Part shown: one piece after another, positions 12,007 through 30,441 of the stretch
Layout: each line of letters begins with the position of its first letter
How positions within the stretch are numbered: the stretch's first letter is position 1
Translations under genes and position numbers: made by a program
Source of the DNA: Vezdaea acicularis
Taxonomy: Eukaryota
NCBI GenBank assembly: GCA_026025075.1
Contig: JAPEUI010000008.1
Location: forward strand, 1 to 64,000
DNA: 64,000 nt
Direction of reading: 5' to 3'
Notes under the pieces: generated by a model
What the model saw: only the letters and a program-made list of their open reading frames with translations
Database searches by the model: none
Told to the model about the DNA's origin: nothing

Positions 12007-15000
12007 ATGGCCGAAGCGCTAGCAATCGTCAGCCTAGTCGCCGCTATCGCCCAGTTTGTCGCCTTGGGGGGCAAGGTACTGGATCGTCTTAATGATTTTA
12101 GGCAGAGCGTTGAAGATCTACCAAAGACCTTTCGCAATATCGCTCGCCAGCTGCCGCTATTGATTGATACTCTCAAACGAACGCAAAGTCAGGCCGATTC
12201 TGGCTGTTTGAGCGAAGAGACTGCTAGGGCTCTCAACCCAATAGTCGAAGGATCTCTAGCCAATGTCAAGCAGCTAGGGGATATACTAGCTAAAGCGCTA
12301 CCTTTGGAGAAGGATTCGACCTGGAGGAGACGTATTAAGGCTCTTGCTAGTCTTGCGCATGACAAAACCATCGAGCAGATTTCTTCCGAGCTTGGTTCAA
12401 ATGTGGGCGTGTTGACATACTACCAGGCCACAACTAATTCGGAGTTCGCCAGTTTTACGCCGGATAAGAACTTGACTACGTTTGATAAAGAAAAAGACTA
12501 CCAATGCTTGTGCGATTTGCGATTGACTGATCCTCGGGATGACAAAATTAGGATTGAGCGGAGTAAAGATGATCTGCTCAAAGATTCATACACGTGGATC
12601 CTTGAAGATCCAGCTTATGAAGATTGGAGCCAAAATGACGGTACACAGTTGCTTTGGATTAAAGGTGATCCTGGCAAAGGCAAGACAATGTTGATGATAG
12701 GTCTCATTAACGAGCTATCAAAGCAATTAGAATCGACAGCTGGCTCGAGCATACTATCCTACTTCTTCTGTCAGGGCACTGAGCCTAATCTCAACAATGC
12801 AGTATCCGCTCTCAGGGGCCTGATCTACCTGCTGGTTGTTCAACATAAGACCCTTATCCGACATGTGCGGAAGAGGTACGACAGTTCAGGAAGACCTTTA
12901 TTTGAAGATTCCAACGCATTGTTTGCTTTATCGACAATACTCTCAGATATATTGCATGACTCCAGTCTTACAAGGGTTTATTTAATGATAGATGCTCTTG
13001 ATGAATGCAATTCTGAGCTATCTCATCTCTGTGACCTAATCGCTCGCAATTCTTCCGAACCTTCTAAGGTTAAGTGGCTTGTATCAAGCCGTAATAAGCC
13101 TGAAATACAAGAAAGGCTGAGATCAGGTTGTTCTCGTGGTAGAATCAGCCTCGAATTGAATCCAGTTCACGTTTCACGCGCAGTCAATGCTTTCATCGAC
13201 TTCAAAGTCTCTAAACTAACAGAATTAAAGGCATACAAAACCAAACTTCGCGATGAGATCAGAAACTATCTCTATTCGAAGGCGGAGGGGACCTTTCTCT
13301 GGGTGGCTCTGGTCTGCAAAGCGCTTCAAGGGGTGCAGGGTCGAAAGACACTCTCTACTCTGGAAAGTTTTCCATCTGGCTTAGAGCCGTTTTACGAGCA
13401 AATGATGAAACAAATCCGCGATCTCAAAGATGGCGATGACGTTAAATCATGCATGCGGATTCTTTCCTCAGTCACGCTGGCATATCGTCCTCTTCATCTA
13501 AAAGAGTTGATTATTGTTGCCGACCTCCAAGAAGAGCCTGATGATGTCGAGTCGTTGAACGAGTTGATAGATCTGTGTGGTTCGTTCCTTACTGTCCGTG
13601 AAGAGACCGTTTACTTTATTCATCAGTCAGCTAGAGATTTCTTAAGCGCTAGCAAAGTTTCACAAGTATTTCTTTCAGGCCAAGGAGAGGAGCATTGCAA
13701 GATTACAATGCGATCTTTAAAGGCCATGTCTAATACTCTAAGAAGAGATATTTGCAACCTACGAATGCCGGGTACCCTCATAGATGAGTTAGACGACGTC
13801 AATCAAGGCCCTTTAAACCAAATTCGGTACGCATGCTGTTATTGGGTCAACCATCTTCGTGACGCCAGACATCTTCCGCCGAAACAAATCGGCATCTGCG
13901 ATAGCGGAGAGGTCCATGAATTTCTCCAGAAGCATTTCCTCCATTGGCTTGAGGCCCTAAGTCTTATGGGAAATATGTCCGAGGGGGTCATTATGGTAAG
14001 AACTTTAGAGTCAATACTTGTTGTAAGTGTTTCTGTGAATCTATACCATAGCCTTCCTCACTAAGTTATCGAAGCCTGAACCTAAAGTAGCGCCGCTATT
14101 ACTCGCTCTGCTTCGTGATGCAAAACGTTTTATCCTTTACCATAGGTTGATCATCGAAAAGGCACCGCTCCAAGCATACGTTTCTGCTCTTATGTTCAGT
14201 CCGAAAGAGAGTTTGATAAGGGAACAATTTTCTAGTGAAGCGCCATCGTGGGTCAAGATCTGCTCAAGGATGGAGCAGAATTGGAGTCCATGCGTTCAGA
14301 CACTCGAAGGCCACTCTGGTATGGTCATGGCGGTCACATTCTCGCCGGACGGACGGCGGCTTGCATCTGCTTCGGACGACAAGACAGTGCGGCTATGGGA
14401 CGCAGAGACAGGAGCTCTTCAGCAGACACTCGAGGGCCACTCTGGTTGGGTCAGTGCGGTCGCGTTCTCGCCGGACGGACGACGGCTTGCATCTGCTTTG
14501 TGGGACAAGACGGTGCGGCTCTGGGATGCGGAGACGGGAGCTCTTCAGCAGACGCTCGAGGGCCACTCTAGTTGGGTCAGGGCGGTTGCGTTCTCGTCGG
14601 ATGGACGGCGGCTTGCATCTGCTTCGGACGACAAGACAGTGCGGCTATGGGACGCAGAGACAGGAGCTCTTCAGCAGACACTCGAGGGCCACTCTAATTG
14701 GGTTAATGGGGTCACGTTCTCGCCGGACGGACGGCGGCTTGCATCTGCTTCGGAGGACAAGACGGTGCGGCTCTGGGATGCGGAGACGGGAGCTCTTCAG
14801 CAGATGCTCGAGGGCCACTCTGGTTGGGTCAGGGCGGTCGCGTTCTCGTCAGACGGACGGCGGCTTGCATCTGCTTCGTGGGACAGGACAGTGCGGCTCT
14901 GGAATGCAGAGACGGGAGCTCTTCAGCAGACGCTCGAGGGCCACTCTGATTGGGTCATGGCGGTCACGTTCTCGCCGGATGGACAGCGGCTTGCATCTGC

Positions 15001-16210
15001 TTCGAGAGACAAGACAGTGCGGCTCTGGGATGCGGAGACGGGAACTCTTCAGCAGACGCTCGAGGGCCACTCTAGTTGGGTCAGGGCGGTTGCGTTCTCG
15101 TCGGATGGACGGCGGCTTGCATCTGCTTCGGACGACAAGACAGTGCGGCTCTGGGATGCGGAGCCGGGAGCTCTTCAGCAGACGCTCGAGGGCCATTCTA
15201 ATGGGGTCCGGGCGGTCACGTTCTCGCCGGACGGACGGCGGCTTGCATCTGCTTCATCGGACAAGACAGTGCGGCTCTGGGATGCGGAGACGGGAGCTCT
15301 TCAGCAGACACTCGAGGGCCACTCTTACTGGGTTGAGGCAGTTGTGTTCTCGTCGGACGGACGACGGCTTGCATCTGCTTCGTGGGACAAGACAGTGCGG
15401 CTCTGGGATGCGGAGACGGGAGCTCTTCAGCAGACGCTCGAGGACCACTCTAACTGGGCTTATGCAGTTGTGTTCTCGCCGGACAGACGGCGGCTTGCAT
15501 CTGCTTCACAGGACAAGATAGTGCGGCTCTGGAATGCGGAGACGAGAGCTCTTCATTCGACGCTCGAGGGCCACTCTAGTTCGGTCCATGGGGTCACTTT
15601 CTCGCCGGACGGACGGCGGCTTGCATCTGCTTCACAGGACAAGACAGTGCGGCTCTGGGATGCGGAGACGGGAGCTCTTCAGCAGAAACTCAAGGGTCAC
15701 TCTCGTTCGGTCATGGCGGTCACGTTCTCGTCGGACGGACGGCGGCTTGCATCTGCTTCACAGGACAAGACAGTGCGGCTCTGGGATGCGGAGACGGGAG
15801 CTCTTCAGCAGACACTCGAGGGCCATTTTGACTGGGTTGAGGCAGTTGTGTTCTCGCCGGACGGACGGCGGCTTGCATCTGCTTCGGGAGACAAGACAGT
15901 GCGGCTCTGGGATGCGGAAACGGGAACTTGTCAACAAACAATGAAGGACTGTTATAACTTCGTTTTAGGCTCTTCCGGTCTAAAGACTCTCTTTTCAATT
16001 TCCAATCAGGGTAAGGTCTGGTCTTCATACACTCTAGATAATTACCAGAACAATTGGGTAATCTGGCAAGGCTGTAAAGTTCTATGGCTTCCTCCAGAAT
16101 ATAGACCTACTCGCGCAAGGTTCCAGAATAACATCCTTGCAATGGGACACTCATCAGGTCGAGTTATTGTGATCACCTTTAGTTTAGACGATAGCCCGTT
16201 CAAAAAGTAA
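12007..16210 (+). CDS. NLR-like NWD protein: helical N-terminal domain (SesA/NACHT_N-like) - NACHT - 13 highly conserved WD40 repeats (HET-E-like architecture without a HET domain)
   Basis: N-terminus MAEALAIVSLVAAIAQFV; Walker A WIKGDPGKGKT; Walker B LMIDALDEC; KWLVSSR, GTFLWV and FIHQSA motifs. One intron at ~14023-14090. 126-bp GH...WD repeats span 14300-15930. Confidence 0.93.
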
Positions 16211-16632
16211 GTTTGCATCTTCAAAGCTGTAGCAAAGGGACTCATGAATGTTTAGCTGTACACCCTCTCTGCTACCTAGTTCACCGTCTAAGTAATAAGC
16301 GCATTTCAGCCTGACTGCGCTGGAAGAGCGCTCGGTCACCGGAGAGCTGCAGTGCGGGATCGTAAGTGTTGTACATTTGCAAAATCGTGCCTCCCACATT
16401 AATCATACCCTAAGTACGGCGATCAACGAATTCATTCGTAATAAACTTAGCTCACAGATTACCTGGGGAGGTCTTCGATGTATCAGTTGAACAAATACCT
16501 CAGTGAGTGCAGGTAGTTCCTGATTCCTGGGAGTTATACCATATATTGGCGGTCTCGTAAATGTACCACACTTACGACCCCCTACTATCGGATAGGAAGT
16601 GGGTTGAGTAGTAAAGAAAACCTCAAAATCTA

Positions 16633-17826
16633 CAGTGCCATGTCATAAATGTTCGTCCGATTTAAGCGAAAAATGGTCGTCGCGACCCCAATCAATTAAT
16701 ACTTCGTATACCAGCCATCTGCCTCAATTACCGCGTTAATCCTTCATGGCATGCTATCTAATAGGTTCTGAAAGGAATCCTCCGGAATCTGCTCCCAAGA
16801 TTTAGGTAGAACTGAGCCCAAAACTTCCCTAATCTGCCCAGATCCTTTTGCGCGTGATAGTCGGCCCTCGTCAATCTCATGCATCCCATTTTTGAGCGGA
16901 AACCATTGATGTTCAATGGGATTTAGGTTAGGGGAATATGGAGGCCAATCTAATACCTTAATTCCCATATTTTCAAGCCATTGAGTGACTTGTCCAAAGG
17001 TATGAATTGGAGCATTATCATGCATAAATATCGTGTCTTCGTCTAGTAGAGTTGGAAGTTGAGTTTGTAGAAGGTCCAGATAGATTTTGCCAGTGATTCC
17101 ACCTTTTGCACTATTTGAATCCCCTTCCATTACCACTAACTCAGATCTCCTTTCACCGGAAAATGCTGCCCAGACCATCACTGAAATTCTCCCATTTGGA
17201 TTTGAATGTGTTATAGCGTAGGGCTTCCATTTGTCTTCTGGGGGGTCGAAGTACCCAAACTTGATCCATTCCAGACCCTCGTTGTACTGAACACTCATCA
17301 CTAAATGCCACCTTTGAGCAATCTTTAATTGTCCAATCTCTTCTTGCTAAACACCATTGAAGTCTTCTTTGGGCTCGAAGAGTATCAAGAGGAGGTCTCT
17401 TGGCAGCTTTCCATTTGCGCTGGCCTTCTGCAAAAATCCGACGTTTAAAGGAGCTGAGACTAAGCTGTGGACAGATCTGAGCATTGGCAAACCGATAAAT
17501 GGCTGTAGGCATAGCCTTAAACTGTTCAATTATTCCTTGGTCCTGTTCTTTGGTTGTTTTTCAAGGTCGGCCTTGTCGCGTCCGGGACTTGAACAGGCTT
17601 CGACCCATGCCTTCAGCGGCCCAGATACTCTGACAGGTGGTCTTAGGTACCCCTGTCTCACTTGAAATATCCCCAAAGCTCTTGCCTCCTGCCCTCAATC
17701 CACATATAAAAGCCCTCACGGTCGGGTCGTGCTCGCGGCGCTTTGGGATCGTTCTGATCGGTGGCATGTTTTTGGTGTGTCGCAAAAATTCACGAAAATC
17801 GGACGAACACTTATGACATGGCACTG
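16633..17826 (-). mobile_element. Tc1/mariner (IS630-Tc1) DNA transposon, 1194 bp, with a decayed transposase
   Basis: TIRs cagtgccatgtcataaatgttcgtccgattt and aaatcggacgaacacttatgacatggcactg; TA duplication at 16631-16632 and 17827-17828. HTH segment, FSDE, HDNAPIH and WPPYSPNLNPIE are split across frames with stops (e.g. MP*RINAVIEADGWYTKY). Confidence 0.95.
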
Positions 17827-18128
17827 TACTAGCCCGGCAAACTACGGCGGATTCTTACCAGCCATCTTTTGGCGTATACCCGAATTTGGGTTTTGAATCA
17901 AGATACGGGAGACAGCGGCTGACTGATTGCTTGCAGGGATCTGCGATTTAGGGACCATGTATCTCGGGAAATGTTCCTTGTAGTGACTCGAGGAAGATTA
18001 CCATTCCCGCCCCCCAACTCAAAATCTTCATCCTGCCCAGTGCGTATGCGGCAGTCGTCATAGAGAGATTTGAGAAACTTGAATGCTGGATGGATGGAGA
18101 TTTCTCCGAGAAGCACTAAGCACGTTCG

Positions 18129-18717
18129 AAGCGGTTGACGAAATTGATGGCGCTTAAGCAAGTGATGGGCATTTTTTACCCATCGGTATATTTATATGGG
18201 GATTGATGATAAATATTCTTAGTATGAGCTCAATAGTGCTGCTTCGGGTTCAGCCAGCAGCTTGGCAGAACGTTTTGTGCCTTCGAGCTTGTAGTGTTCG
18301 GCCATGGGGGAACTTCTTTTTTGTGCCTTCGATTAAGTAGCTTTTAGTTATGGGGGATCTTCCACTTATTGCCTTTGATTAAATAGCTTTAATTATGGGG
18401 GAACTTTCATGATATATCTTCGATCAAGTAGCTTTTAAATATGGGGGGACTCCCATTTATTGCCTTCAATTAAGTAGCTTTTAGCTATGGGGGAACTCCC
18501 GTTTGATACCTTCAATCAAGTAGCGTTTAGCTACGGGAAACTCCTGTTTAATGCCTTTGATTAAGTAGCTTTTAGCTACGGGGGAACTCCCGTTTATTGT
18601 TTTTGATTAAGTAGCTTTTAGCTATGGAAGAACTCCCGTTTTGTGCCTTTGATCAAGTAGCGTTTAGCTACGGGGGAACCCCCATTTAATGTGCCATCAA
18701 ATTTTGTCCGCAGCTTT
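18129..18717. repeat. Inverted-repeat-bounded unit containing ~9 tandem 46-bp repeats with a GGGGAAC(T/C)CCC mini-hairpin
   Basis: Left end aagcggttgacgaaattgatggcgc and right end gtgccatcaaattttgtccgcagctt are inverted. Units start at about 18278, 18324, 18370 and continue to ~18644. Confidence 0.85.
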
Positions 18718-19021: not shown

Positions 19022-19318
19022 ATGCCTGGCAAAGATCTTTGTCTCCTGTCCCTCGACGGTGGCGGTGTGCGAGGATTGTCGTCACTTGCAATCCTTAAGA
19101 GACTTATGGAGACTATTAATCCGGAGGCACCACCAAAGCCTTGCGAATACTTTGATATGATTGGGGGAACAAGCACTGGTGGATTGATGGCTATAATGCT
19201 TGGTCGTCTGAAGATGGACATTGACAAATGCATCGAAGCCTACGTGGCACTGTTTGATCGAGTTTTCAAGACGAAACGGCACCGCGTCAAGTTAAATGGG
19301 CAAGTGCAAGGGCGTTTT
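19022..19318 (+). pseudogene. 5' fragment of the duplicated patatin-NB-ARC-TPR gene
   Basis: Near-identical to 32611-32908 (DGGGVRG, GTSTG). Similarity stops abruptly after ...GQVQGRF. Confidence 0.9.
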
Positions 19319-19377
19319 TTTAGCAGCAATTTATTGGTTAAGTCAAGGCCGTTTCTTCTAGAAGTGATAATCTTTCA

Positions 19378-20732
19378 TTATAGGTCGGCCAAAATAACGT
19401 TGCCGACCTTGTTTAATTGTCTTAATTTTACATAAGCAATATCCTCAGCACACTGGCAAGACTTGTTAGCAATGGCTTTGACTTGTAAATCTTCATCCTC
19501 GATATCATATTCGTGAATTACACGACATTTCATGCAACGAGGTGTGGGTTCAAACCAATTTCGTTGTTTAGCGTGTATAATTGGCGCAAAATGAGACTGT
19601 GCACACTCTCTTGCGTAAGTGAATGGCGCCCACTTTTTGCGATTTACCAGCGGGAGAACAAAAGGTACCTGATTAGGTGCCATTGGCGTGGGTTTGCGGC
19701 CAGCATACTCCTCAATCAAACGAACCGTTACCAGGCTCTGAAAATTGGCAAGTGCTATGCCAGTTGCGTTTCGAGTGTATCCAACTGCTTGGTATCGTCT
19801 TTCTGGTGTTGTAAGGTTCGTATCAGATTGATTACAAAAACGAGCTTTTAACTCTTCGTCATAATGATTTGAACCTTGTATAAACCGACGTTGCCGTAAT
19901 GCTGTAAAGTTCGTTGTCAAGGCTGGTACATTGACGTATCCCATATACATAACTGTGGAACCAATAATTAGACTTCTTTCCGGAAGAGTTGACTGAGTAA
20001 CAAAAATGCAATTAGAAAACCCATCGTGATTATCAGGATTATAATTAGCTGGGAAATGATTTGCTATGGCGATCTGTCGTAAATTTGCCTGAACGGCATC
20101 TGATAAATATCAAGTAAGTATATGCCTAAATCTTGTCCTGAATTGCTAAGGAATCAAGAAAGAACGTTCTTACCTGGATTTTTGATACGATCAGCTGCAT
20201 TGTGTACCATGAGGTATATTTGAACTACCAATTCTAATGGTGGTTCCGCCGGTATCATTTGCACCCGTGTAATGTCGTCATTAATGCTATTAACACCTTG
20301 TTCTAGCCAAGTCTTTGGTAAACTTGCAAGTACACTGAAGAAGTTGCCGAGGTTTCGCAAAAATGTAATCCAGTCCGGGCCCTCTGTTTGAGCTACCGAA
20401 TTCACTTCAGTCTGTTTGGATATCCATGATGAGTAGTGCGACATAGCACCATAAAAGTATAACATAATCCATGTTAGGCGGCTGGCTGAATTCACGACTT
20501 CGGAAATAAAAAACGATTGATATTTGGGATCTTGATAAAGATTATAGACAGAAGCCATCATCTTGGTTAAGTTATCTGTTAGGCTTGCATATTTTAAGAC
20601 TCGGCTGTTGATAAGCGCCCTATCTTTAGGTAAAAGACTGAGATCATAAGCTTTCCATGAAGCGACAGAGCCAACTGCCGCCCCCAGTGGTACTAATCTC
20701 TGGGAAATAAATGCGGCCAGTGTGGCTTCCAT
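19378..20732 (-). CDS. Module gene A1: unknown ~426-aa protein with C-terminal PRCMKCRVI...CQCAE (putative permuted zinc-deaminase-like domain)
   Basis: ORFs 20154-20732 and 19378-19950 join in frame through a GT-AG intron at 20100-20173 (...KNP/DAVQANLRQ...GFSNCIFVTQ...IIGSTVMYMG). Homologous to 24077-25196. The deaminase label is inference. Confidence 0.75.
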
Positions 20733-21064
20733 TTGATAGCTTTTCGGAAAAAAAGCTTGAATGATAGAAAAACTTTGGTCTTCAAGCTATTTGTTGCTCA
20801 CTCAACAGAAGATTTGCCTGCAGCATTAAGGTACGTCAACAGCTCAGCTCTAGACATGCTCACAGCTAAAACTCGGCTCCGGCCCTGCCATTTAGGGCTT
20901 TGACAGTGGCGCTTGCATGAAATGATAAATTGGATCATTTCACGGCCTTAACATCAGCATCAGGTTTGCACGTTAGTTGTGAACACCTGTGCAATATACA
21001 GAACCAGTCACTGCATAGAATTCTTGGGAGAAACCTTCCAGACCAAATTCTATATTACGAAGAA

Positions 21065-22115
21065 ATGGAGAAAATCAGCGTTACTCAAAGCCTTTTGGCT
21101 GATTTAAGTGAGTCAGAGGACCATTGCAACGCGTGGTCTTTTTAAGTCGTTGAACATGACTGACGTTTATTTAGGCTATAGCAATCTCCTTCAAACAGTC
21201 CAGTTACCCACTCAGAAAGCCCTGCAGCAATTGCAGCAGATTCAGCAAAAGATCGACACACTACCTAAATCTAGCAAGCCTATACAACCAGGGATGCAGC
21301 CCTCGAAGTTCTTAAAAGCCCTTGCTGAACTCAATACTGCAAATCCAGATACTCTTCAAGACTTTCTAAATGCGACCCAAGTCTGGCCCTCAGCCAATTT
21401 ACCCAAACCCATTCCTATAGGAACGCATGACAGTATACAATATTTTATCAAAGTTTCTGACAAAACTGTTCATCAAGATTCTAGCTCCGCTGCGATCCCG
21501 ACTCGTGAAGTTTTCTACGGGATCTTCACCTACGAGACACTAAGTATTTTGAGAAGTCAATCTACAACGACTCACCTTGATTATGACTCGCTAGCCAAAA
21601 ATGCGGATGATTCTTATGAGAGTTTTGTTTCTGAGGCAGAAAGAGTCCCGTTAGGCCAAACTATAATCACAGACCTCAAGTACGGGTTTGGCATTGGGAG
21701 GCTCTATCACAAAACATCAAAAGCAGCCGATATGGAGGACACTGGCTTCTACGTAATATGCAACGCTGTCGATAAGAGTATTTGGATTGCCTTTGATTTT
21801 GAGCCTTATGGCGAAACAGGCGATATCAACCTTATACAGCCAGAGTACGGTGATCCCTATGGAACGCTGCCTCTGGACACGCAGAAAATGGTGATAGGGG
21901 TTATGAGACTCTTCACAAAGGAGTGGACAGCGAGGAAACCCCTGTCTTTAGATGACGGAGATCCGTTTTGTAACGGGGCGGGCATTCCACTAACATGCAA
22001 GCTAGTGGCAAAATCAGCATTTGTAGCAGATGTGCTTAATGCCATCAAGGCTGGCAGGGCTAAAGATACATTAAGCAGGTCCTCATGGTCATTCAAAGGA
22101 CCTAAAGCCTCCTAG
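21065..22115 (+). CDS. Module gene B1: unknown ~327-aa protein, divergently transcribed partner of A1
   Basis: ATG at 21065 (MEKISVTQSLLADL). Intron 21108-21174 (gtgagt...ctgac...tag) rejoins ORF 21108-22115 in frame. Shares motifs with 26708-27709. Confidence 0.75.
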
Positions 22116-22133
22116 TACTTAACTCTTAGATGT

Positions 22134-23151
22134 GCGAGCACCGAAGGGGTACGAGAAGGCCAGGGGTTCAGATCACCCACCTGCGCTCAACAGGGTCAAC
22201 AACCTAGGCGTTCTGTATAAGGGTGAAGGCAAGCTGGCGGAAGCTGGGGTCATGTACCAGCGAGCATTGAAGGGGAGGGAGAAGGCCTTGGGTCCAGATC
22301 ACACATACACGCTCAACACAGTCAGCAACCTAGGCTTTCTTTACAGCAACCAAGGCAAGCTGGCGGAGGCTGAGGCCATGTTCCAGCGAGCATTGAAGGG
22401 TTACGAGAAGGCCTGAGGTCCCAATCACACATCCACGCTTGACACAGTCAGCAACCTAGGCGACTTGTACCGCAACCAATGCAAGCTGGCGAAGGCTGAA
22501 GCTATGTACCAGCGAGCATTAAAAGAATATGAGAAGGCCTGGGGTCCAGATCACACATCCGCGCTTGATACAGTCAACAACCTAGGCGTTCTATACAAGG
22601 CTCAAGGCAAGCGGGCGGAGGCTGAGGCCATGTACAGGCGAGCATTGAAGGCGAAGGAGAAGGTCTGGGGTGCAGGACACACATCTACACTTGACACAGT
22701 CAACAACCTAGGCAACCTGTACAGCGAGCAAGGCAAGCTGACGGAGGCTGAAGCCATGTATCGGCTAGCATTGAAGGGGTTCGAGAAGGCCTGGGGTCCA
22801 GATCACACATCCACGCTCAACACAGTCAACAACCTAGGCATCATGTACGGCAAGCAAGGCAAGCTGGCGAAGGCTGAGGCCATGTACCAGCGAGCATTGA
22901 AGGGTTGCGAGAAGGCCTGGGGTCCAGATCACACATCCACGCTCAACACCATCAACGACCTAGGCAATCTGTACATGTCTCAAGGCAAGCTGGCGGAGGC
23001 CGAGGCCATGTTTCAGCGAGCACTTAAGGGTTACGCAGATGCCCGAGGTCTTGCTCATCCGAGAACAGAGTTAATCAATAGAAAACTGCAAGCGCTACTG
23101 GAGAAAAAGAAAAGGCGAAAGCAAGATATTATCCGCAAATTTCTTTTTTAA
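22134..23151 (+). pseudogene. Orphaned TPR 3' fragment of the duplicated patatin NLR (7 repeats)
   Basis: Same repeat family and C-terminus (YADARGLAHP.TELINR.LQ...KKK) as 34371-36398. It has no start, an internal TGG>TGA at 22414-22416, and begins 19 bp after the B1 stop. Confidence 0.9.
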
Positions 23152-23597
23152 CAAATGGAAGCAATGGTCGAGTCTGAGAGATGGGGTTATGAGCCCAAAT
23201 TATGTTTACTTAAGAAGATACTCTACGAATGAGGGAAATCATGATAAGCAAAGCTTTTTATATAGAGCTTCCGGACCACGCTAATCTGATGAAATCTCAT
23301 GACGTCCGATCTCGCATTTCGGTCTTTTGAGAAGGCCTTCTATCGATTCCAAGCTTCATATCCAATTGCTGAACCAATTCAGGGTTGCCCGAAGCTATGG
23401 CAGCCAGGACAAGTTATGACGCGAAGGTGCTCTGAACAACACGGTTGGTTTAAAGTCGCAGCAGACGGGAAGGGAATCTACCGATGAATATGAGGAGGAC
23501 ATTCCCACGCCTGAGCTGCCCATCAAAAGATACTGACGCCGGCGTGAGCTTGTACCGCGGCAGAAATTTCCGAACCTCAGCCGCACTGTCTTCAGCA

Positions 23598-23868
23598 CGA
23601 TGCGGTGGACAAGATTGATGCCGTAGAGGCGAATAGTGGGCTTGTTTACCCATGGGCGCGCGTTACTTTCAGCAGTTCCGATATCGTTGGCAATCAATGA
23701 TGAACATTCTCAGTGTTGGCTCAATAGTACTACTCCTCGCTCTTGTTGGATTATTATACTCCGGGTTATATCTGCGGCCTGGCAGGGCCGATTTGTACCT
23801 TCGAGTGTAAAGCATTTAGCTACGGGGGAACCCCCGTTTAATGCGCCATCAGTTTTGTCCACAGCTTT
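23598..23868. repeat. Another copy of the inverted-repeat-bounded unit, with one 46-bp repeat
   Basis: gcggtggacaagattgatgccg...gctcaatag...ccttcgagtgtaaagcatttagctacgggggaacccccgtttaatgcgccatcagttttgtccacagcttt, colinear with 31991-32303. Confidence 0.8.
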
Positions 23869-24076
23869 GAAAGTAGACTAGTGGAGGATCAAATCAAAAT
23901 ATCACATTGGGGTGAAGACTAGACTACGAGATACTACTGAACCAAAAGAAGGTAAGAAGAACCATCGTCTCATCACTTAAAACCCACCAATCTCTCTCCG
24001 ATATGTGCGAAAAAAATAACGAAAAATCTTGAAGCATTGTAGACGAGTTGGATACCCTCCTGCTTTCCTGCTTTTC

Positions 24077-25196
24077 TCAACCGTGAGAAGTAGCCACACA
24101 CATAGGGTGGGCAACGGCCTCGGCACAGGAGAAAGTTGGGTATATTTGCTCGGTGTAGTTGTCTGGTTCGGCAACGCAAGAGTACCTGAAGATGACCCGG
24201 CAGCGTCGACAGCGGGTGCGAGGCGTCATTTCGGGGATGGCGTAGGACATGGCTCGATCATTGAGATGATTATAAGTAATCGGAGGCCCCAAGGCTGGGG
24301 GTAGAGCTGCAATTCGGGTCCATTCTGCCTGCAAGCGGCCATCGGCGCCGGCATACAATCCATTACGATAGGCCACTCCAAGGGGCCGTACGTCGCGTGC
24401 AAGTCGGTTGGTCAAACTGGTCAACTGAGTCCGATATATATCTGTCATGCGAGAGTTTTGTCGTGCGTCTTTTGCCCATTGGTCAAGATCCGTAAATGCA
24501 CCCCATTTGCTGTCCGACATTGGTGCAATCCACCTGTTGTTGGCAGTAGGAGGACGAACGGCCTGACCTTGGCAGAGAAACACACACTTTGCTATCCCAA
24601 TATTGGCCCAACGTACGCGGCCAGCTTGACGGAAAAAGGCATTGTTGAGTGCAGCAATAGCATTGGCTATCAAGAGATGTTAGAGCTTGCAATCAGAAGA
24701 TAGTAAGAGAAGTGATGAATGGTTTACCATGTGTGGCTGGGTTCCGGACCCTCAAGATCGTTTGAAACAGTAGTTCCAGGGGCGCTTGAGCAGCAATATT
24801 GGGAATTCCGGGATTACCAGCCCTCCATCCTGACCAGATATTGCTGCGGTGAGGAATCAAGGGAACGTAACCAGCTTGGTTGGCCATTGCTTGGGCAATT
24901 TGCCCGAGTTGGTTGATCTTGTTCATAAATAGTCTTTTAGCTTGAGCGCCTTGAAGGCCCCAATTGCATAGTTCCGCGACGCCTCGGAAGGCGTCTGAGA
25001 CGAGCCATAAGATCACATTAATCAGGTCCTTTGAAGACTGCTGGACTAGTAGACGGTCCACATCACCGCGTTTGAGTGTTCTTAGCATCACAATGGCCAC
25101 ATCTATAAACTTTTCAGTCACCTTGACTGCCCGGTGTGTCGGCACATTGTTGTTGAAAAATTGGGCCGAGTGCAAGGGACGATTCGGATCTGCCAT
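24077..25196 (-). CDS. Module gene A2: unknown ~352-aa protein with C-terminal PRTRCRRCRVI...FSCAE (putative permuted zinc-deaminase-like domain)
   Basis: ORFs 24693-25196 and 24077-24673 join in frame via intron 24667-24727 (gtaaac...ctaac...tag). Motifs PLELLFQ, GIAKCVFLCQ, RCRRCRVI and CAE parallel A1. Confidence 0.78.
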
Positions 25197-26707
25197 GATG
25201 CGCGTGATAGTGATAGTAGTGGAAGTGAGATTGAATAAATTTCTAATTCAATTCCTTATCAGATGAACGCTTTGTATTCCTTATCCACGAGCTTACCGTT
25301 TAGATTCTTACGACTTTGTGCTACTTTGGAGGCCTGGCTGAGATTCTCTGGATTAGGATCAGACTGGTCTTGCGTATGTTATATCTCTTAATAGCAATGA
25401 CTTATCTGAAAGGGTGATTAAAAAACTTCTTCCGTGTCGTAGATCTTTATAGTTTTGCGGACGTGGCACCGAGTAGCCAAGAGCTTTCTGTTCAAGATAA
25501 TGCTCCCCTAAGAAATACTTCCATCTCACTCGCCGGAGCATACAACACCCCAGTCTCAATGCACACGATTGTTTCAGCTGAGGCTTGAAGGCTCCCTTCG
25601 ATCCACTTACAGTTCTCCGATGCGCAGTCCTGGAGGGTTGCAACTGGCTTCCATGATTACTTCTGTCAAGGCAGTCATGTCAGCTGAAAAATAAGAGAAG
25701 CTGATGATAGCTGTTGCATGTGCAGCTGGTACACAATATGAAGAGATCAATAATGAAAGGTTACTTCTTCTAGAAGAAGCTGCCTCGACTTAACCAATGG
25801 ATTGCTGCTGAAAACGCCAGCGAGAGATACCAAACTTCACACCCGCGCGTGACGAGGGCCATTGTTCTTCAAAGGGAGTTAATGGGAGCATCCATACAGT
25901 TGTGGCTTCATGTAGGGTAGTATCTGCTTCCACTTGAATGAAACCGTAATGGTCTCGGATGAATGGAAGGCCTCTTCAAGATTGAAGCCTCATTCATTAA
26001 ATCAGCCAATCCCTTCCCGCATAGAAGTGAACTTGTTGTTTTTTCAGCTGATCCATGGCCTACGTAGATTCCTGCAAGGTAACGTTGATATAAACATGAG
26101 GGAAAGCGGCTTGCGTCTCGTATTCCATGTGCATCAAAACGCGGGGCAGCGGCCGGTTTCAACCTGCTTCCAAGAGTCCATCTCCAATCGAATCCTGACC
26201 AACCATTCTATTTGGGCTTGTGTACAATTATGACCGTTCCGGTGTCACCGCTAGTTACCTTGATTGTAGGTACTGCCATGATCCATTTTGCTACTAGATG
26301 CGGTCGGTGTGCCACTTTATCTCGAGGTCGGTGAAGCCATTTGTTGCAATGTTCAGGGTTACATCCGGACCTCGATGCCCCAAGGTTCCGACGCCACACA
26401 CGCTCAAGGGAGGGATTGGTCTTGCTCCTTATTGGATATTTTCTTTGGGGCATGAGCTGGACCCGGGAAGTGTGCAAGCGTTTTGGGACAGATGCTTGAT
26501 CCCTAGAAGTTCGAAGACGCAGCTCGAATTTTGAAAGTGGCAGGCTTTCACGGGTCCTAAAGCGTCCGTTTGGAATGCTGCCGCCTTTTCCTATATAACC
26601 GGAGTCCTCAGATTTCTCCTCACAAGATGCTTAAAATTGCGCATAGATATTCGACATCTCATCATAGTATCTAACCTACCTTGCGAGAACAGAAACCGTA
26701 ATTCAAG

Positions 26708-27709
26708 ATGGGTCAACCGGCCTCCCCGGACAATATCACTGCAGAAATGGAAAACAAGTTTCGCGGTATTCAGGGAAAAATAAGCACGTTAACCGGTAAG
26801 CATAAGGGCGCCGCTCCCTTTCCCCTTTTCCCTTCCCCAGCAACACCAAACACTTGTGCTCATCATCTTCCAGATGAGGACATCCAGCTAGAACTCGACC
26901 GACCCCCTAAGACTGACACGGACACATTTTACATGTGGCTGGTTGATGCTGAAGGCGAGAGGTTGGAGAAGGAGGTGTTTCGCGAACCGCCCACCCTTGC
27001 CGAGTCATCGGCCAGCATTAAAGGAACCGATTTCAAAGATCCCTCTTCCATTCTGAACCTGTACTCCAATACGCAAGGCTTCGGCGTACCGTTGCCATTG
27101 CGTATTGGGAAGTACAGCGCCGACAGGGAATACCACTGCTCAGTTGATTTCGAGTCCAGCCTTCTTCCGATTGATTTCCCGTCCGATACGCAGAAGGTTG
27201 ACACCGGCCTCACGTACCTGAAATCTGAACCGCCCAATCCGGCTCTCCCAACCTTTGTCTATCAGCTAGGCCGCCTCTTGCACGCAGAAACACCCACAGC
27301 CGAGGAGACCAAGTTGGAAGACTCGTGCTTTGTGTTTGCCATCGATGTCGATCGGACTGCTTGGGCAATCTGGAATCCAGCCAGCGTCGAGGGAACTTGG
27401 GAAGAAGAGCCAAAGCCCGTCCGCCCAATCAACGGGGTCTTCCCCGGATTTGAGAAGAATCCCTGTGCCGCCGTCCCGCTTGGAACCGTCAATGAGCTTC
27501 TTCCCGTCGGTGACGGATCATCGTCAAAAGTCATCCAGATTGACCCCAAGACCTTCGTGGAGGCTAAAGAAAAATCTACTCTGAAATTTGGTGAAGTAAC
27601 TGAAGCCGCTTGGGCGACGCTCAGTAAGGTTTCAACCAAATTCAGCAATGCTGCCGGCCTCATCAATCCAGCAACGACAGCAGCGTTGCAGGTACCCAAA
27701 GCGAAATGA
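26708..27709 (+). CDS. Module gene B2: unknown ~307-333-aa protein, divergently transcribed partner of A2
   Basis: 333-codon ORF with upstream TATATAA (~26592) and a probable in-frame intron at 26796-26873. VPLPLRIG, FPSDTQKVDTGLT, LGRLLH and LEDSCFVFAIDVDRTAWAIWN align with B1. Confidence 0.78.
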   Translation: MGQPASPDNITAEMENKFRGIQGKISTLTGKHKGAAPFPLFPSPATPNTCAHHLPDEDIQLELDRPPKTDTDTFYMWLVDAEGERLEKEVFREPPTLAESSASIKGTDFKDPSSILNLYSNTQGFGVPLPLRIGKYSADREYHCSVDFESSLLPIDFPSDTQKVDTGLTYLKSEPPNPALPTFVYQLGRLLHAETPTAEETKLEDSCFVFAIDVDRTAWAIWNPASVEGTWEEEPKPVRPINGVFPGFEKNPCAAVPLGTVNELLPVGDGSSSKVIQIDPKTFVEAKEKSTLKFGEVTEAAWATLSKVSTKFSNAAGLINPATTAALQVPKAK

Positions 27710-28011: not shown

Positions 28012-28094
28012 CGGGACTGCTGAAAGTAACGCATGCCGATGGGTACTCATGTCCACCATTCGCTTATGCGCCATCAATTTTGTTCCCCACTTCG
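28012..28094. repeat. 83-bp inverted copy of 23598-23680
   Basis: Ungapped alignment to the reverse complement of 23598-23680; manual count about 65/83 identities. Confidence 0.8.
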
Positions 28095-28683
28095 CACCGT
28101 GCCGTGCGTGCCTAGTTTGGCCTTGGGAGTTGCCCGAACGGCACTAAGAATTTTTCCGCTCAGCCCGCGGCGCTTTCCGGTGCTTAGCGGAAAGTATATC
28201 GGTCTGCACACCACTAGAATTGAGCCAGTGCCCGTCAGGCTTCTTCATGAAGACTTCAGTGTGATGATTATGAAATCGTTCCAAATCTGTTGACAGTATC
28301 AGAAGTCAGAAGAGCATGCGATGTAGGTTCCTCTGCCAAGACGGAAATCTACTATAGTGCTTTCCCATTTTCCTATATGGCAGGTATCACGTGATGCATG
28401 TTTGGCACAGACCGCCCCTGCAGGCTAAGTCGCGGATTGAACAGATTTGTGAGAGCATTTTAACTGATAATTTCAAAAACGCGGAAAGAAATTTGCCATA
28501 AAAATAATCCAACGTGCTCTTTGACATAAAAATCTTCAGTCTAATATAGAGACACTATTGTATTGAAAATCGTTCACCAAGCTATATGCGTATGATGATG
28601 TAGGTGGAGGCGGCTGTTGTAATAAGGTACTTACGCCAAATTGCAGTAGGGTTGGTAAGGCGCTCACAATCTGAAGACGGTTT

Positions 28684-30441
28684 TTAGCCGAGCCAACCCT
28701 TGAGCTTAGACCAAGTACTACTAACTCCAGACCACACGTAATCTACGACAGACTTCCCAGCCTTTTCTGCCATCATGCGAACCTCTTGAAGCTGCTGTTT
28801 GAGATCTTTCATTTCAGCTTCGCGAGAAAGCTCGAGTGCTTTTGCATCTGCCTCGGCTTTATGAAGCTTAGCTTCAAGCTCTTTTTGCTGATCTTCATTA
28901 ATCTTCCTCATGATCTCACTATGAGTTCGATCTTTCTCTGCAAGCTTGTCTTCAAGCTCCCTTCTCCATTTTGCTTCCAGTAACAAAATTTCTTGGTTAA
29001 TAGCTGCTCCTGCAGCGGTCTGCACAAGAGACTTTTTCTCATCCACAATCTCTCTTTGAATTTCGAGAACAATCTCTGGATTGCCAAGAGCGTGGCTCAA
29101 TACGCGCAATGCTGAGTCTTGAGTGTTGTTATGGCGTTCCATTTTTGCTCCATATTGAAGAGGCACTTTCCAAAAGTCTTCACGAAGCTCTTTCTCTCTC
29201 TCTCTTCCAATTTCCTCGTCCTGGAGGGCATCCCATTTGGTTGTTACGAGAACAACGTTGGCTAGCGCGTCGGTACCGCATAGTTTGAGCATCATATCAA
29301 GATTCTTAACCGCAGAGCCTTTCATTCTAGCTTCTGTAATCTCACGTAGGTATATAATACCAGTGAGTTTCACCCCTAAAGTATAACTTGACTATATGTC
29401 AGTATGATAATCACAAGAATGACGACAGAATCCTTACTTAAACTCCATCCAGTTAGCAATTCGTCTGAGTACCTCCGTGTCACTGAGATTTGTATCATCA
29501 AAACCTGGTGTATCGACTAATTTGATGATGTGAGACTTGTAGTGAAAATCGGTCTCATCGACATCTGCAGTGCATGATCTAGAGCCATGTCCAACATTCA
29601 TGACTCGAGAACCGCTGACACAGTTGATAAACTATCACTGAAGATTATCTCATGCCCGGACAACAATCCTGGGAATTGTCTTACACTGCTTTTTCCAGCG
29701 CCCGTTGGCCCCATAATGCTAAACTCGATGTTAGCATAGATTTTGAGAGAGTTCTATACAATCTTGCAATTACTAACCCAATAAGGTTCCTATATACTGG
29801 AGGCGCCTCAACGGGAGGAGGGACCCTTGTGCGGGCTGGCTTACGACGAAGAGTGCTCGTACCGTAACATTGGGGTTGCGTGCGGCGATCTCGAGGCATC
29901 TCTCGCGCAGGGTTAATTGATTTGGTCCTCCCATCGTCTATTGAAGTGTTAGATTTGGTAAGTTGAAGTGAGAATCGGATACGTTGCCACCGTCATGCCA
30001 CGCTGGTAAATCCTCTACTCTCAGATCTTCGAACTCCTCCTCAACATAGCGGGAAGGGCGTTTGCCGGATTCTTCGGAAACCTTAAAATTTTCCTCTCGT
30101 TTATGAGTATTAAGTATTTCAAATGACAAATCATCAGCATAATCCATGTCACTGTTTGTTTTCCGGAGATTATTTCGAGCTTTTGAGGGATCAAAACTCA
30201 ATGCAGCTAAGTCGACCTCTACTGCATCCTCGTCGTCGTTTGAATCGGCCAACTCAGTGTTGCCTCTAGAGATTCGACTACTAGAAACTGGTGAGATCTC
30301 TTCCTTATCTGAGGGCTCCGCGACTCTATCAGGATGATGGCTAGTTCGGCGACGCATGAATAATGGATTAGATTGCATTTCGTCCAGAAGTTCAGGCGGA
30401 GGGGAGGATGGAGAAGTAGCGGAATCTTTGTAGGCAGTCAT
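28684..30441 (-). CDS. Fungal P-loop GTPase (G-domain / MMR_HSR1-AIG1-like) with disordered N-terminus and C-terminal coiled coil; several introns
   Basis: Spliced minus strand gives IMGPTGAGKS (G1, ~29687-29717), VGHGSRSCT (G2), LVDTPGFDDT (G3), GIIYL and VVLVTTKWD (G4). Linkage of the 5' exon (29938-30447 ORF) is less certain. Confidence 0.82.

Follow-up and report, generated by a model that had tools for sequence, protein, structure and literature searches.

Base deaminases serve as toxins, immune mutators and genome-editing tools, and to our knowledge every known one has the same fold and the same order of zinc-binding motifs. A 64,000-nucleotide stretch of the genome of the lichen-type fungus Vezdaea acicularis (assembly GCA_026025075.1, contig JAPEUI010000008.1, positions 1 to 64,000; hereafter the window) raises the question of whether such a zinc centre could also be built in another way. 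Two of its genes, A1 and A2, each lying head-to-head with a second gene (B1 and B2, respectively), encode proteins whose C-terminal tail carries a Cys-x-x-Cys (CxxC) motif followed by Cys-Ala-Glu (CAE), which is the reverse of the deaminase order. A preliminary description of the window had interpreted both as rearranged nucleic-acid deaminases, which could be killers aimed at tRNA or DNA or, more speculatively, mutators of nearby NOD-like receptor (NLR) genes. Judged from sequence, the two genes represent diverged copies of the gene for an unnamed two-domain protein restricted to Pezizomycotina. The existence of this family, the conservation of its motif and the secondary-structure placement of the motif in a confident model are established; in overall function, the family is a candidate zinc-site protein whose predicted fold matches nothing known.

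A rare family and its conserved motif

Both genes lie on the minus strand (Table 1), have intact reading frames and share the position and phase of their intron, and in each the CxxC and CAE strings were found where the preliminary description had placed them. That description had closed A1 at AEDIAY, whereas the gene reads on for 17 residues (VKLRQLNKVGNVILADL) to its stop codon. The A1 product consists of an N-terminal helical domain and a C-terminal domain that carries the zinc motif, the family build being a helical part of about 185 aa and an alpha/beta part of about 200-240 aa. Exon 1 of A1 matched an N-domain profile made from 7 full-length homologues (E 2.6e-20), exon 2 matched the family profile made without the window rows (E 1.6e-60), and the full-length members P0030, P0043, P0045, P0051, P0053 and P0059 show the same two domains. 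Residue numbers throughout follow exon 2 of A1.

A word-indexed search with A1 exon 2 returned 28 proteins at E ≤ 0.01 among 203 candidates, and a longer search added one more, a 428-aa intron-retaining gene call. When 1.84 billion cluster representatives were scanned by HMMER with a profile of 22 close relatives, 39 proteins were found at E ≤ 0.001, 31 at ≤ 1e-10 and 14 at ≤ 1e-30; a search with a diverse alignment gave at least 12 proteins and added little. The family is real but rare. The named relatives, all annotated as 'hypothetical protein', are all Pezizomycotina and come from three classes: the lichen-forming Pseudocyphellaria aurata (Lecanoromycetes) and Xylographa bjoerkii (which we take to belong to the same class), Xylaria telfairii (Sordariomycetes), Phialophora macrospora (Eurotiomycetes) and Exophiala xenobiotica (presumably also Eurotiomycetes). 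Neither exon of A1 or of A2 matched a family in Pfam, NCBIfam or PADLOC (searches of the latter two with 9 proteins gave 0 families). The best hit of the family profile among PDB sequences (E 0.69) was not a deaminase, and the last 63 aa of A1 gave a single, irrelevant match to NKG2-D (E 0.061). The literature searched contained no paper on the family, its accession numbers or a reversed deaminase motif.

A2 is linked to the family through profiles. BLASTP found no connection between A1 and A2 (E 2.1 and 0.099 for the two exons), and A2 forms the longest branch (4.6) of a quick maximum-likelihood tree. When 1,298 open reading frames (ORFs) were searched with a profile of 21 members from which both window genes had been left out, A2 exon 2 nevertheless scored E 3.3e-12, and we therefore regard A2 as truly belonging to the family, though very divergent. 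The match of its exon 1 to the N-domain profile is weak (E 0.32) and confined to a P-A-x-x-L-E-L motif; its zinc-motif module lacks C215, carries H223 and has Ala in place of D220. A2 also has P-M-S where the family has G-S-T, and its stop comes 12 residues past the CAE...H (24077-24130, minus strand), the K-L-R helix continuation kept in the family being missing; an alternative frame just downstream reads S-R-L-R-K-A-G and might mean a small frameshift near the 3' end. A third A-like ORF (28687-29391, minus strand; E 0.0071 against the family profile) was rejected, as its alignment is low-complexity coiled coil without any motif.

In its six frames the window contains 1,298 stop-to-stop ORFs with a length of 30 aa or more (81,457 residues); the pattern CxxC-x(15-40)-CAE matches exactly two of them, which are the two A genes. 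Over 200 residue shuffles, the number of matches averaged 0.105 and never exceeded 2. The second Cys of CxxC and the Cys of CAE lie 25 residues apart in both genes despite their strong divergence. For the conservation tallies, a 63-row alignment was reduced to 54 rows by removing, by hand, the fragments and apparent frameshifts P0019, P0022, P0032, P0034, P0035, P0036, P0037 and P0056 and, in addition, one row with fewer than 60 residues covered; 52 of the kept rows cover both motifs.

The zinc-motif signature turned out to be the best-conserved part of the family. On the CxxC side, R188, C189 and K191 are each kept in 51 of the 52 rows, R193 in 50 and C192 in 49; between the motifs the tallies are 47 for Y198, 48 for E203 and 49 for N212, and on the CAE side 50 for C217, 51 for A218 and 50 for D220. 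E219, the Glu of CAE, whose loss among homologues the preliminary description had named as grounds for giving up a deaminase, is present in all 52. Identity between clades is just 20-30% overall, and the three Cys, three acids and three bases of a 32-residue span, together with two Arg of the helix at 59-74 (R69 in 42/43 rows and R72 in 42/44), are nearly the sole invariant residues. Other well-kept positions of the C-terminal domain are in the predicted hairpin (C31 in 24/28; G47, S48 and T49 in 26, 25 and 25 of 29) and at G27, I32, F33, F65, W157, F160 and F183. By the measure of conservation, the CxxC/CAE site is the functional heart of the family.

One zinc Cys is replaced by Y, F, R or S in a few homologues: P0031, P0039 and P0041 (all at C192), P0044 (at C189), P0026 and P0040 (at C217), and P0049. 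P0022, P0032 and P0034-P0037 diverge abruptly, like decayed or frameshifted copies, and the family may include many pseudogenes.

Predicted structure and comparison with deaminases

A first model, built from 22 close sequences, was poor, with a predicted local distance difference test (pLDDT) of 62.7. The second, built from 63 sequences, reached a pLDDT of 90.6 and a predicted template-modelling score (pTM) of 0.86; its five models ranged from 87 to 91, no stretch fell below 50, and the zinc-motif blocks stood at 89-95 (92-95 at the CxxC helix block). With H for helix and E for strand, its elements are H2-13, E31-37, E44-48, H59-74, insert helices at 80-87, 99-105 and 115-132, E160-171, H190-195, E196-199 and H218-228. 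In this model the helix that comes first after strand 160-171 is H190-195, with C189 and C192 at its first turn, and C217-A-E219 lies at the first turn of the last helix, H218-228. The upstream CIFVTQ...IIGS segment, which according to the preliminary description could supply two strands, is indeed modelled as two (E31-37 and E44-48).

Iyer et al. (2011) describe the deaminase centre as a His or Cys at the N-terminus of a helix, an acid at +2, a Cys pair within the opening turn of the helix that follows, and a water molecule. The core is a four-stranded sheet of order 2-1-3-4 with strand 1 antiparallel, Hel-1 preceding the hairpin, followed by Hel-2, with Hel-3 between strands 3 and 4; Table 1 of that work gives 'C[H]AE' and 'PCxxCR' as signatures of the CDD/CDA clade. 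Set against this description, the local placement of the motifs in the A model is the same, in the opposite order along the chain. C189 and C192 (51 and 49 of 52 rows) correspond to the Cys pair found in the first helical turn after strand 3, and E219, in A2 as well, to the acid two positions after the single ligand. No His or Cys ligand is found at the N-terminus of helix 2, ahead of the Cys pair, as the Cys-x-Glu comes after CxxC.

The A family would resemble CDD/CDA deaminases in having only Cys as zinc ligands, a helix that begins with Cys-Ala-Glu, its acid following the ligand by two residues, and another helix that begins with a Pro-preceded Cys-x-x-Cys-Arg; C-A-E-D and P-R-C-x-K-C-R resemble the clade signatures. 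It differs from them in the reversed motif order with 24 residues between the motifs, in the lack of profile similarity and of detected fold similarity, and in its helix 59-74, which occupies the helix-2 position and carries R69 and R72 but no Cys/His-x-Glu. It also adds the N-terminal helical domain and a 75-residue helical insert.

The deaminase fold was sought with Foldseek and VIA-align and was detected by neither; no other known fold was matched either. Foldseek of the confident model against the PDB gave 0 rows at E ≤ 0.001 (best E 0.5), and the deaminase domain of a Hydra ADAR, which ranks 23rd (E 2.0, probability 0.02, TM score 0.10), is at chance level. The same holds for a phage 'cytidine and deoxycytidylate deaminase domain' protein at rank 22 of the BFVD search (E 2.3, 49 columns), the best E there being 0.76. 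In the ESM Atlas, the P0030 model (pLDDT 0.29) had no usable match, and the P0059 model (pLDDT 0.51) gave structural TM scores of 0.31 or less throughout; its sole named feature lead, a cluster with YwqJ-deaminase on 11% of its members, scored 0.75, which, lying below 0.9, is a lead only and at noise level. The Pfam deaminase families gave 0 matches at E ≤ 1 for A1 and A2 and 0 at E ≤ 5 in 23 members, and hhalign of the family profile with E. coli TadA and Cdd returned probabilities of 0.07% and 0.6% over just 13 and 9 aligned columns.

Of the proposed rearranged deaminase, then, the invariant Glu and the deaminase-like local placement of the motifs at helix starts in the model have held up, while a deaminase fold or profile match has not been found. 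The family and its predicted, unmatched fold appear to be new; a Cys3 zinc centre with a Glu would be of a known kind.

A proposed zinc site, catalytic or structural

We rank first, tentatively and short of calling it probable, the reading that the C-terminal domain is a hydrolytic, deaminase-like zinc centre on an unmatched fold. It is placed first because a catalytic zinc-water centre would look like this site, in which three candidate ligands are firm and a fourth can be dispensed with, and in which a helix starts with a ligand that a Glu follows at the second position. One zinc ion would most likely sit between the N-termini of two helices; R-C-x-K-C-R, where the short helix 190-195 begins, would provide two ligands, and C217, where the last helix begins, the third. 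E219, D220 and E203 would jointly act on a water bound to the zinc, following the chemical logic of cytidine deaminases. The five invariant basic residues suggest a phosphate-bearing substrate, and R69, R72, R188, K191 and R193 may hold such a nucleotide or nucleic acid.

As to a fourth protein ligand, no Cys or His beyond the three Cys is universal in the 52 rows: C215 occurs without H223 in 29 rows, H223 without C215 in 13 (A2 among them), both in 4 and neither in 6. On the quick tree, a 35-row clade around A1 (support 97) contains every C215-only row, the distant rows and A2 carry H223, and the basal rows of the A1 clade, P0027 and P0033, have neither; this last state requires 4 changes, at least 3 of which are forced by well-supported branches. 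As rows with neither residue occur in several lineages, the family seems to persist with three ligands, as catalytic zinc sites do. The sequence pattern fits two readings, ligand swapping at a four-ligand structural site and a three-ligand site with a free fourth position.

Several observations weigh against a hydrolytic centre. A possible fourth ligand, C215 or H223, is present in 46/52 rows and suits a structural zinc site too, and the alternation of the two between clades is what ligand swapping at a structural tetrahedral site would look like. In the model, the helix after CxxC has 6 residues and runs straight into a strand, unlike deaminase helix-3, and the sequence methods (Pfam, PDB profile search and hhalign) find nothing. 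Finally, four of the removed rows, P0032, P0034, P0035 and P0036, reach the motif region and lack CAE; given their abrupt departure from the consensus, these look like frameshifted or decayed gene calls. A hydrophobic-moment test, which pointed to a strand after CxxC, was not used, as its control failed: E. coli TadA helix-3 also came out as beta over alpha.

A structural four-ligand zinc finger comes a close second, although we consider it doubtful, because a candidate for the fourth ligand exists in most members and neither an enzyme family nor an enzyme fold was matched. Here an extended C2-C(C/H) arrangement of knuckle, strand and helix would staple the C-terminal helix to the domain, and the protein would bind a partner or nucleic acid instead of catalysing a reaction. 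The spacing C-x2-C ... C-x5-H resembles that of classical C2H2 fingers, and the plan would be akin to treble-clef and C2H2-like fingers, in which CxxC is followed by a strand or loop and by a helix with the remaining ligand(s), and Cys and His interchange at the fourth ligand. A treble-clef finger takes two of its four protein ligands from a CxxC knuckle within a beta-hairpin and the other two from the opening turn of a helix. The invariant Glu and Asp would then serve as helix caps or as salt-bridge partners of R188, K191 and R193, and the conserved acids and bases near the motif, three of each, could pair. However, a Glu kept in every row and an Asp kept in 50/52 at such low identity would exceed what helix capping usually needs, and the fourth ligand is missing from 6/52 rows in at least three lineages. 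Unlike in such fingers, the A module lies inside a domain of 200-240 aa, an invariant Glu-Asp follows the third ligand, and the model has CxxC at a helix start and not in a beta-hairpin knuckle. The structure search of the model matched no finger fold, and among 23 members the zinc-finger Pfam models gave nothing beyond one Zn_ribbon_TOP3B hit at chance level (E 0.26).

It is considerably less likely that the family is a true, rearranged member of the deaminase fold, in which Cys-x-Glu would have moved from the N-terminus of Hel-2 to that of Hel-4. Along the chain, the model has a helix, a two-strand hairpin, a second helix, the helical insert, a strand, the CxxC helix, another strand and a last helix; this order is compatible with the deaminase core and, setting the insert aside, can be read as Hel-1, Str-1, Str-2, Hel-2, Str-3, Hel-3, Str-4 and Hel-4 of the scheme of Iyer et al. 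(2011). The Cys pair in the opening turn of the third core helix and the likeness to 'C[H]AE' and 'PCxxCR' agree with the same source. No deaminase-fold chain was matched by Foldseek or VIA-align, though, and the leads that point this way (ADAR, the phage protein and the Atlas YwqJ cluster) are the chance-level ones given above, while hhalign and the Pfam deaminase models, as reported there, speak against it. A 6-residue helix followed immediately by a strand would also make the usual strand-helix-strand crossover impossible, and helix 59-74 carries its two Arg and no zinc ligand. A simple circular permutation of a cytidine deaminase can be ruled out by reasoning, since the four elements that a permutation requires would not fit into the 24 residues that separate CxxC from CAE.

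Polymorphic-toxin deaminases of the YwqJ-like and MafB19-like clades, for which Iyer et al. (2011) record variable, degraded C-terminal elements and CxE variants, share with the A family a conflict-type genomic setting. They are bacterial, linked to secretion systems and accompanied by immunity genes, whereas the A family is fungal and shows no homology signal to them.

The least probable reading, in which zinc is structural and E203, E219 and D220 bind a second metal (Mg or Mn) in a nuclease or phosphoesterase whose basic residues hold nucleic acid, would account for the three near-invariant acids and five near-invariant bases that cluster in sequence around the zinc motif, but it lacks a conserved His as general base (H196 is kept in 42/52 rows and is otherwise Y, Q, M, N or F) and no HNH or other nuclease family or fold was matched. 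Nuclease toxins with zinc-stapled beta-beta-alpha fingers are known; an HNH/beta-beta-alpha-metal nuclease, which has a conserved His general base where the first strand ends and an Asn or His metal ligand in the helix, was rejected here for want of a conserved His, position 223 being His in 17/52 rows, and of an HNH Pfam match.

The A/B pairs among NLR genes

Neither B1 nor B2 has a match in Pfam, NCBIfam or PADLOC, and the best PDB hit of B1 has E 1.1. The two are weak paralogues (best BLASTP high-scoring pair E 0.006), with 27% identity in a global alignment and common N- and C-terminal ends; they have in common a G-R-L-x-H ... E-D-x-x-F-x-V ... V-D ... W block and a P-K-A C-terminus. Since A1 and A2 are paralogues, B1 and B2 are paralogues and each pair is head-to-head, a two-gene A/B module appears to have been duplicated and then to have diverged strongly. 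Metagenome scans for the genomic context of A elsewhere gave no confirmed locus, and a scan of the A1-B1 spacer for bacterial promoters and terminators, irrelevant for a fungus, was empty.

Table 1. Positions of the A and B genes, their motifs and neighbouring features in the window (a second pair of positions gives the other arm of an inverted repeat).
Feature	Position	Strand	Details
Gene A1	19381..20732	-	426 codons; ATG at 20732; stop 19380..19378; sequence and splice signals read directly
A1 exon 1	20732..20174	-	
A1 intron	20173..20100	-	GT...AG, phase 1
A1 exon 2	20099..19381	-	
A1 hairpin, residues 31-48	19957..20010	-	modelled as two strands, C31-IFVTQS ... LIIGST
A1 zinc-motif module	19444..19545	-	P-T-P-R188-C189-x-K191-C192-R193 ... 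E203 ... N212 ... C215-x-C217-A-E219-D220
A1 CxxC	19536..19525	-	C189-M-K-C192; wider R188-C189-M-K191-C192-R193 at 19539..19522
A1 CAE	19452..19444	-	C217-A-E219; wider C215-Q-C217-A-E219-D220 at 19458..19441
Gene A2	24080..25196	-	352 codons; ATG at 25196; stop 24079..24077; sequence read directly
A2 exon 1	25196..24728	-	
A2 intron	24727..24667	-	GT...AG, phase 1; same aligned position as A1 intron
A2 exon 2	24666..24080	-	
A2 zinc-motif module	24106..24220	-	R-C-R-R-C-R ... F-S-C-A-E-A-V-A-H
A2 CxxC	24211..24200	-	
A2 CAE	24127..24119	-	
Gene B1	21156..22115	+	319 aa; divergent from A1, ATGs 424 bp apart; ORF call
Gene B2	26708..27709	+	333 aa; divergent from A2
SesA-NPHP3_N/NACHT ORF directly before WD40 ORF	12007-16210	+	WD40 ORF with 13 very regular repeats, PF00400 577.7 bits
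Tc1/mariner-like remnant	16631-17828		DDE_3 ORF 16747-17301 (-) between 40-nt terminal inverted repeats, 90% complementary
Tandem array	18251-18704		46-nt unit, ~9 copies; just downstream of A1 end
Single copy of 46-nt unit	23788-23856		80% identical; just downstream of A2 end
Half patatin domain, N-terminal	19022-19335	+	profile positions 1-89 of 191
TPR_10/TPR_12 repeat run	22123-23151	+	in-frame TGA 22414-22416
Inverted repeat, 83-nt arms	23598-23680 / 28012-28094		78% complementary; bracket A2-B2 pair, 4,331 nt between
Related inverted arms	18124-18172 / 28049-28097		
Related inverted arms	19317-19386 / 25745-25814		

The surroundings are rich in genes of the NLR type. A WD40 ORF comes after a SesA-NACHT ORF, and there are TPR_10/TPR_12 proteins, one protein with ankyrin repeats, one of the F-box-WD40 kind and the remnant of a DDE_3 transposase (Table 1). 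The SesA-NACHT and WD40 ORFs together look like an NWD-type fungal NLR split by a stop or an intron at 14064-14147. The patatin half and the TPR run lie on one strand and flank the A1-B1 pair on either side, and the 3' end of A1 overlaps the patatin ORF of the opposite strand; it looks as if a patatin-...-TPR NLR gene lost its middle to the A1-B1 pair. The inverted arms may be what is left of a dispersed repeat or a mobile element by which the A/B module was moved.

The NLR-rich, repeat-ridden region and the head-to-head orphan B genes suggest that A may act as a conflict or cell-death effector, a toxin with B as its partner. Fungal NLR-linked effector genes have been described, e.g. HET-S next to NWD2 (PMC4344463), and A is likewise a small effector-like gene among NLR genes of a filamentous ascomycete, the window containing NLRs of the SesA-NACHT-WD40 and TPR types as well as patatin and TPR fragments. 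It differs in that Pfam finds no amyloid motif or HeLo-type domain in it, the B neighbours are not NLRs, and the adjacent TPR and patatin sequences are fragments. In its most specific form, the hydrolytic reading would have three Cys, a zinc ion, a water and the Glu clamped between the N-termini of two helices on a fold new to the PDB, as a deaminase active site that either arose a second time by convergence or was rearranged to an extreme degree, and would make A a nucleotide or nucleic-acid deaminase serving as a cell-death or conflict effector beside NLRs with B as inhibitor or sensor; we consider this full version rather unlikely.

If the zinc and Glu logic of deaminases does operate on this unmatched fold, the family would provide an enzyme scaffold not seen before and open a new class among fungal conflict effectors. 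If the site is structural, the family still defines an orphan domain that folds confidently in prediction (pLDDT 90.6 from just 63 sequences) and occurs in three classes of Pezizomycotina, as well as a duplicated A/B gene pair inside an NLR cluster.

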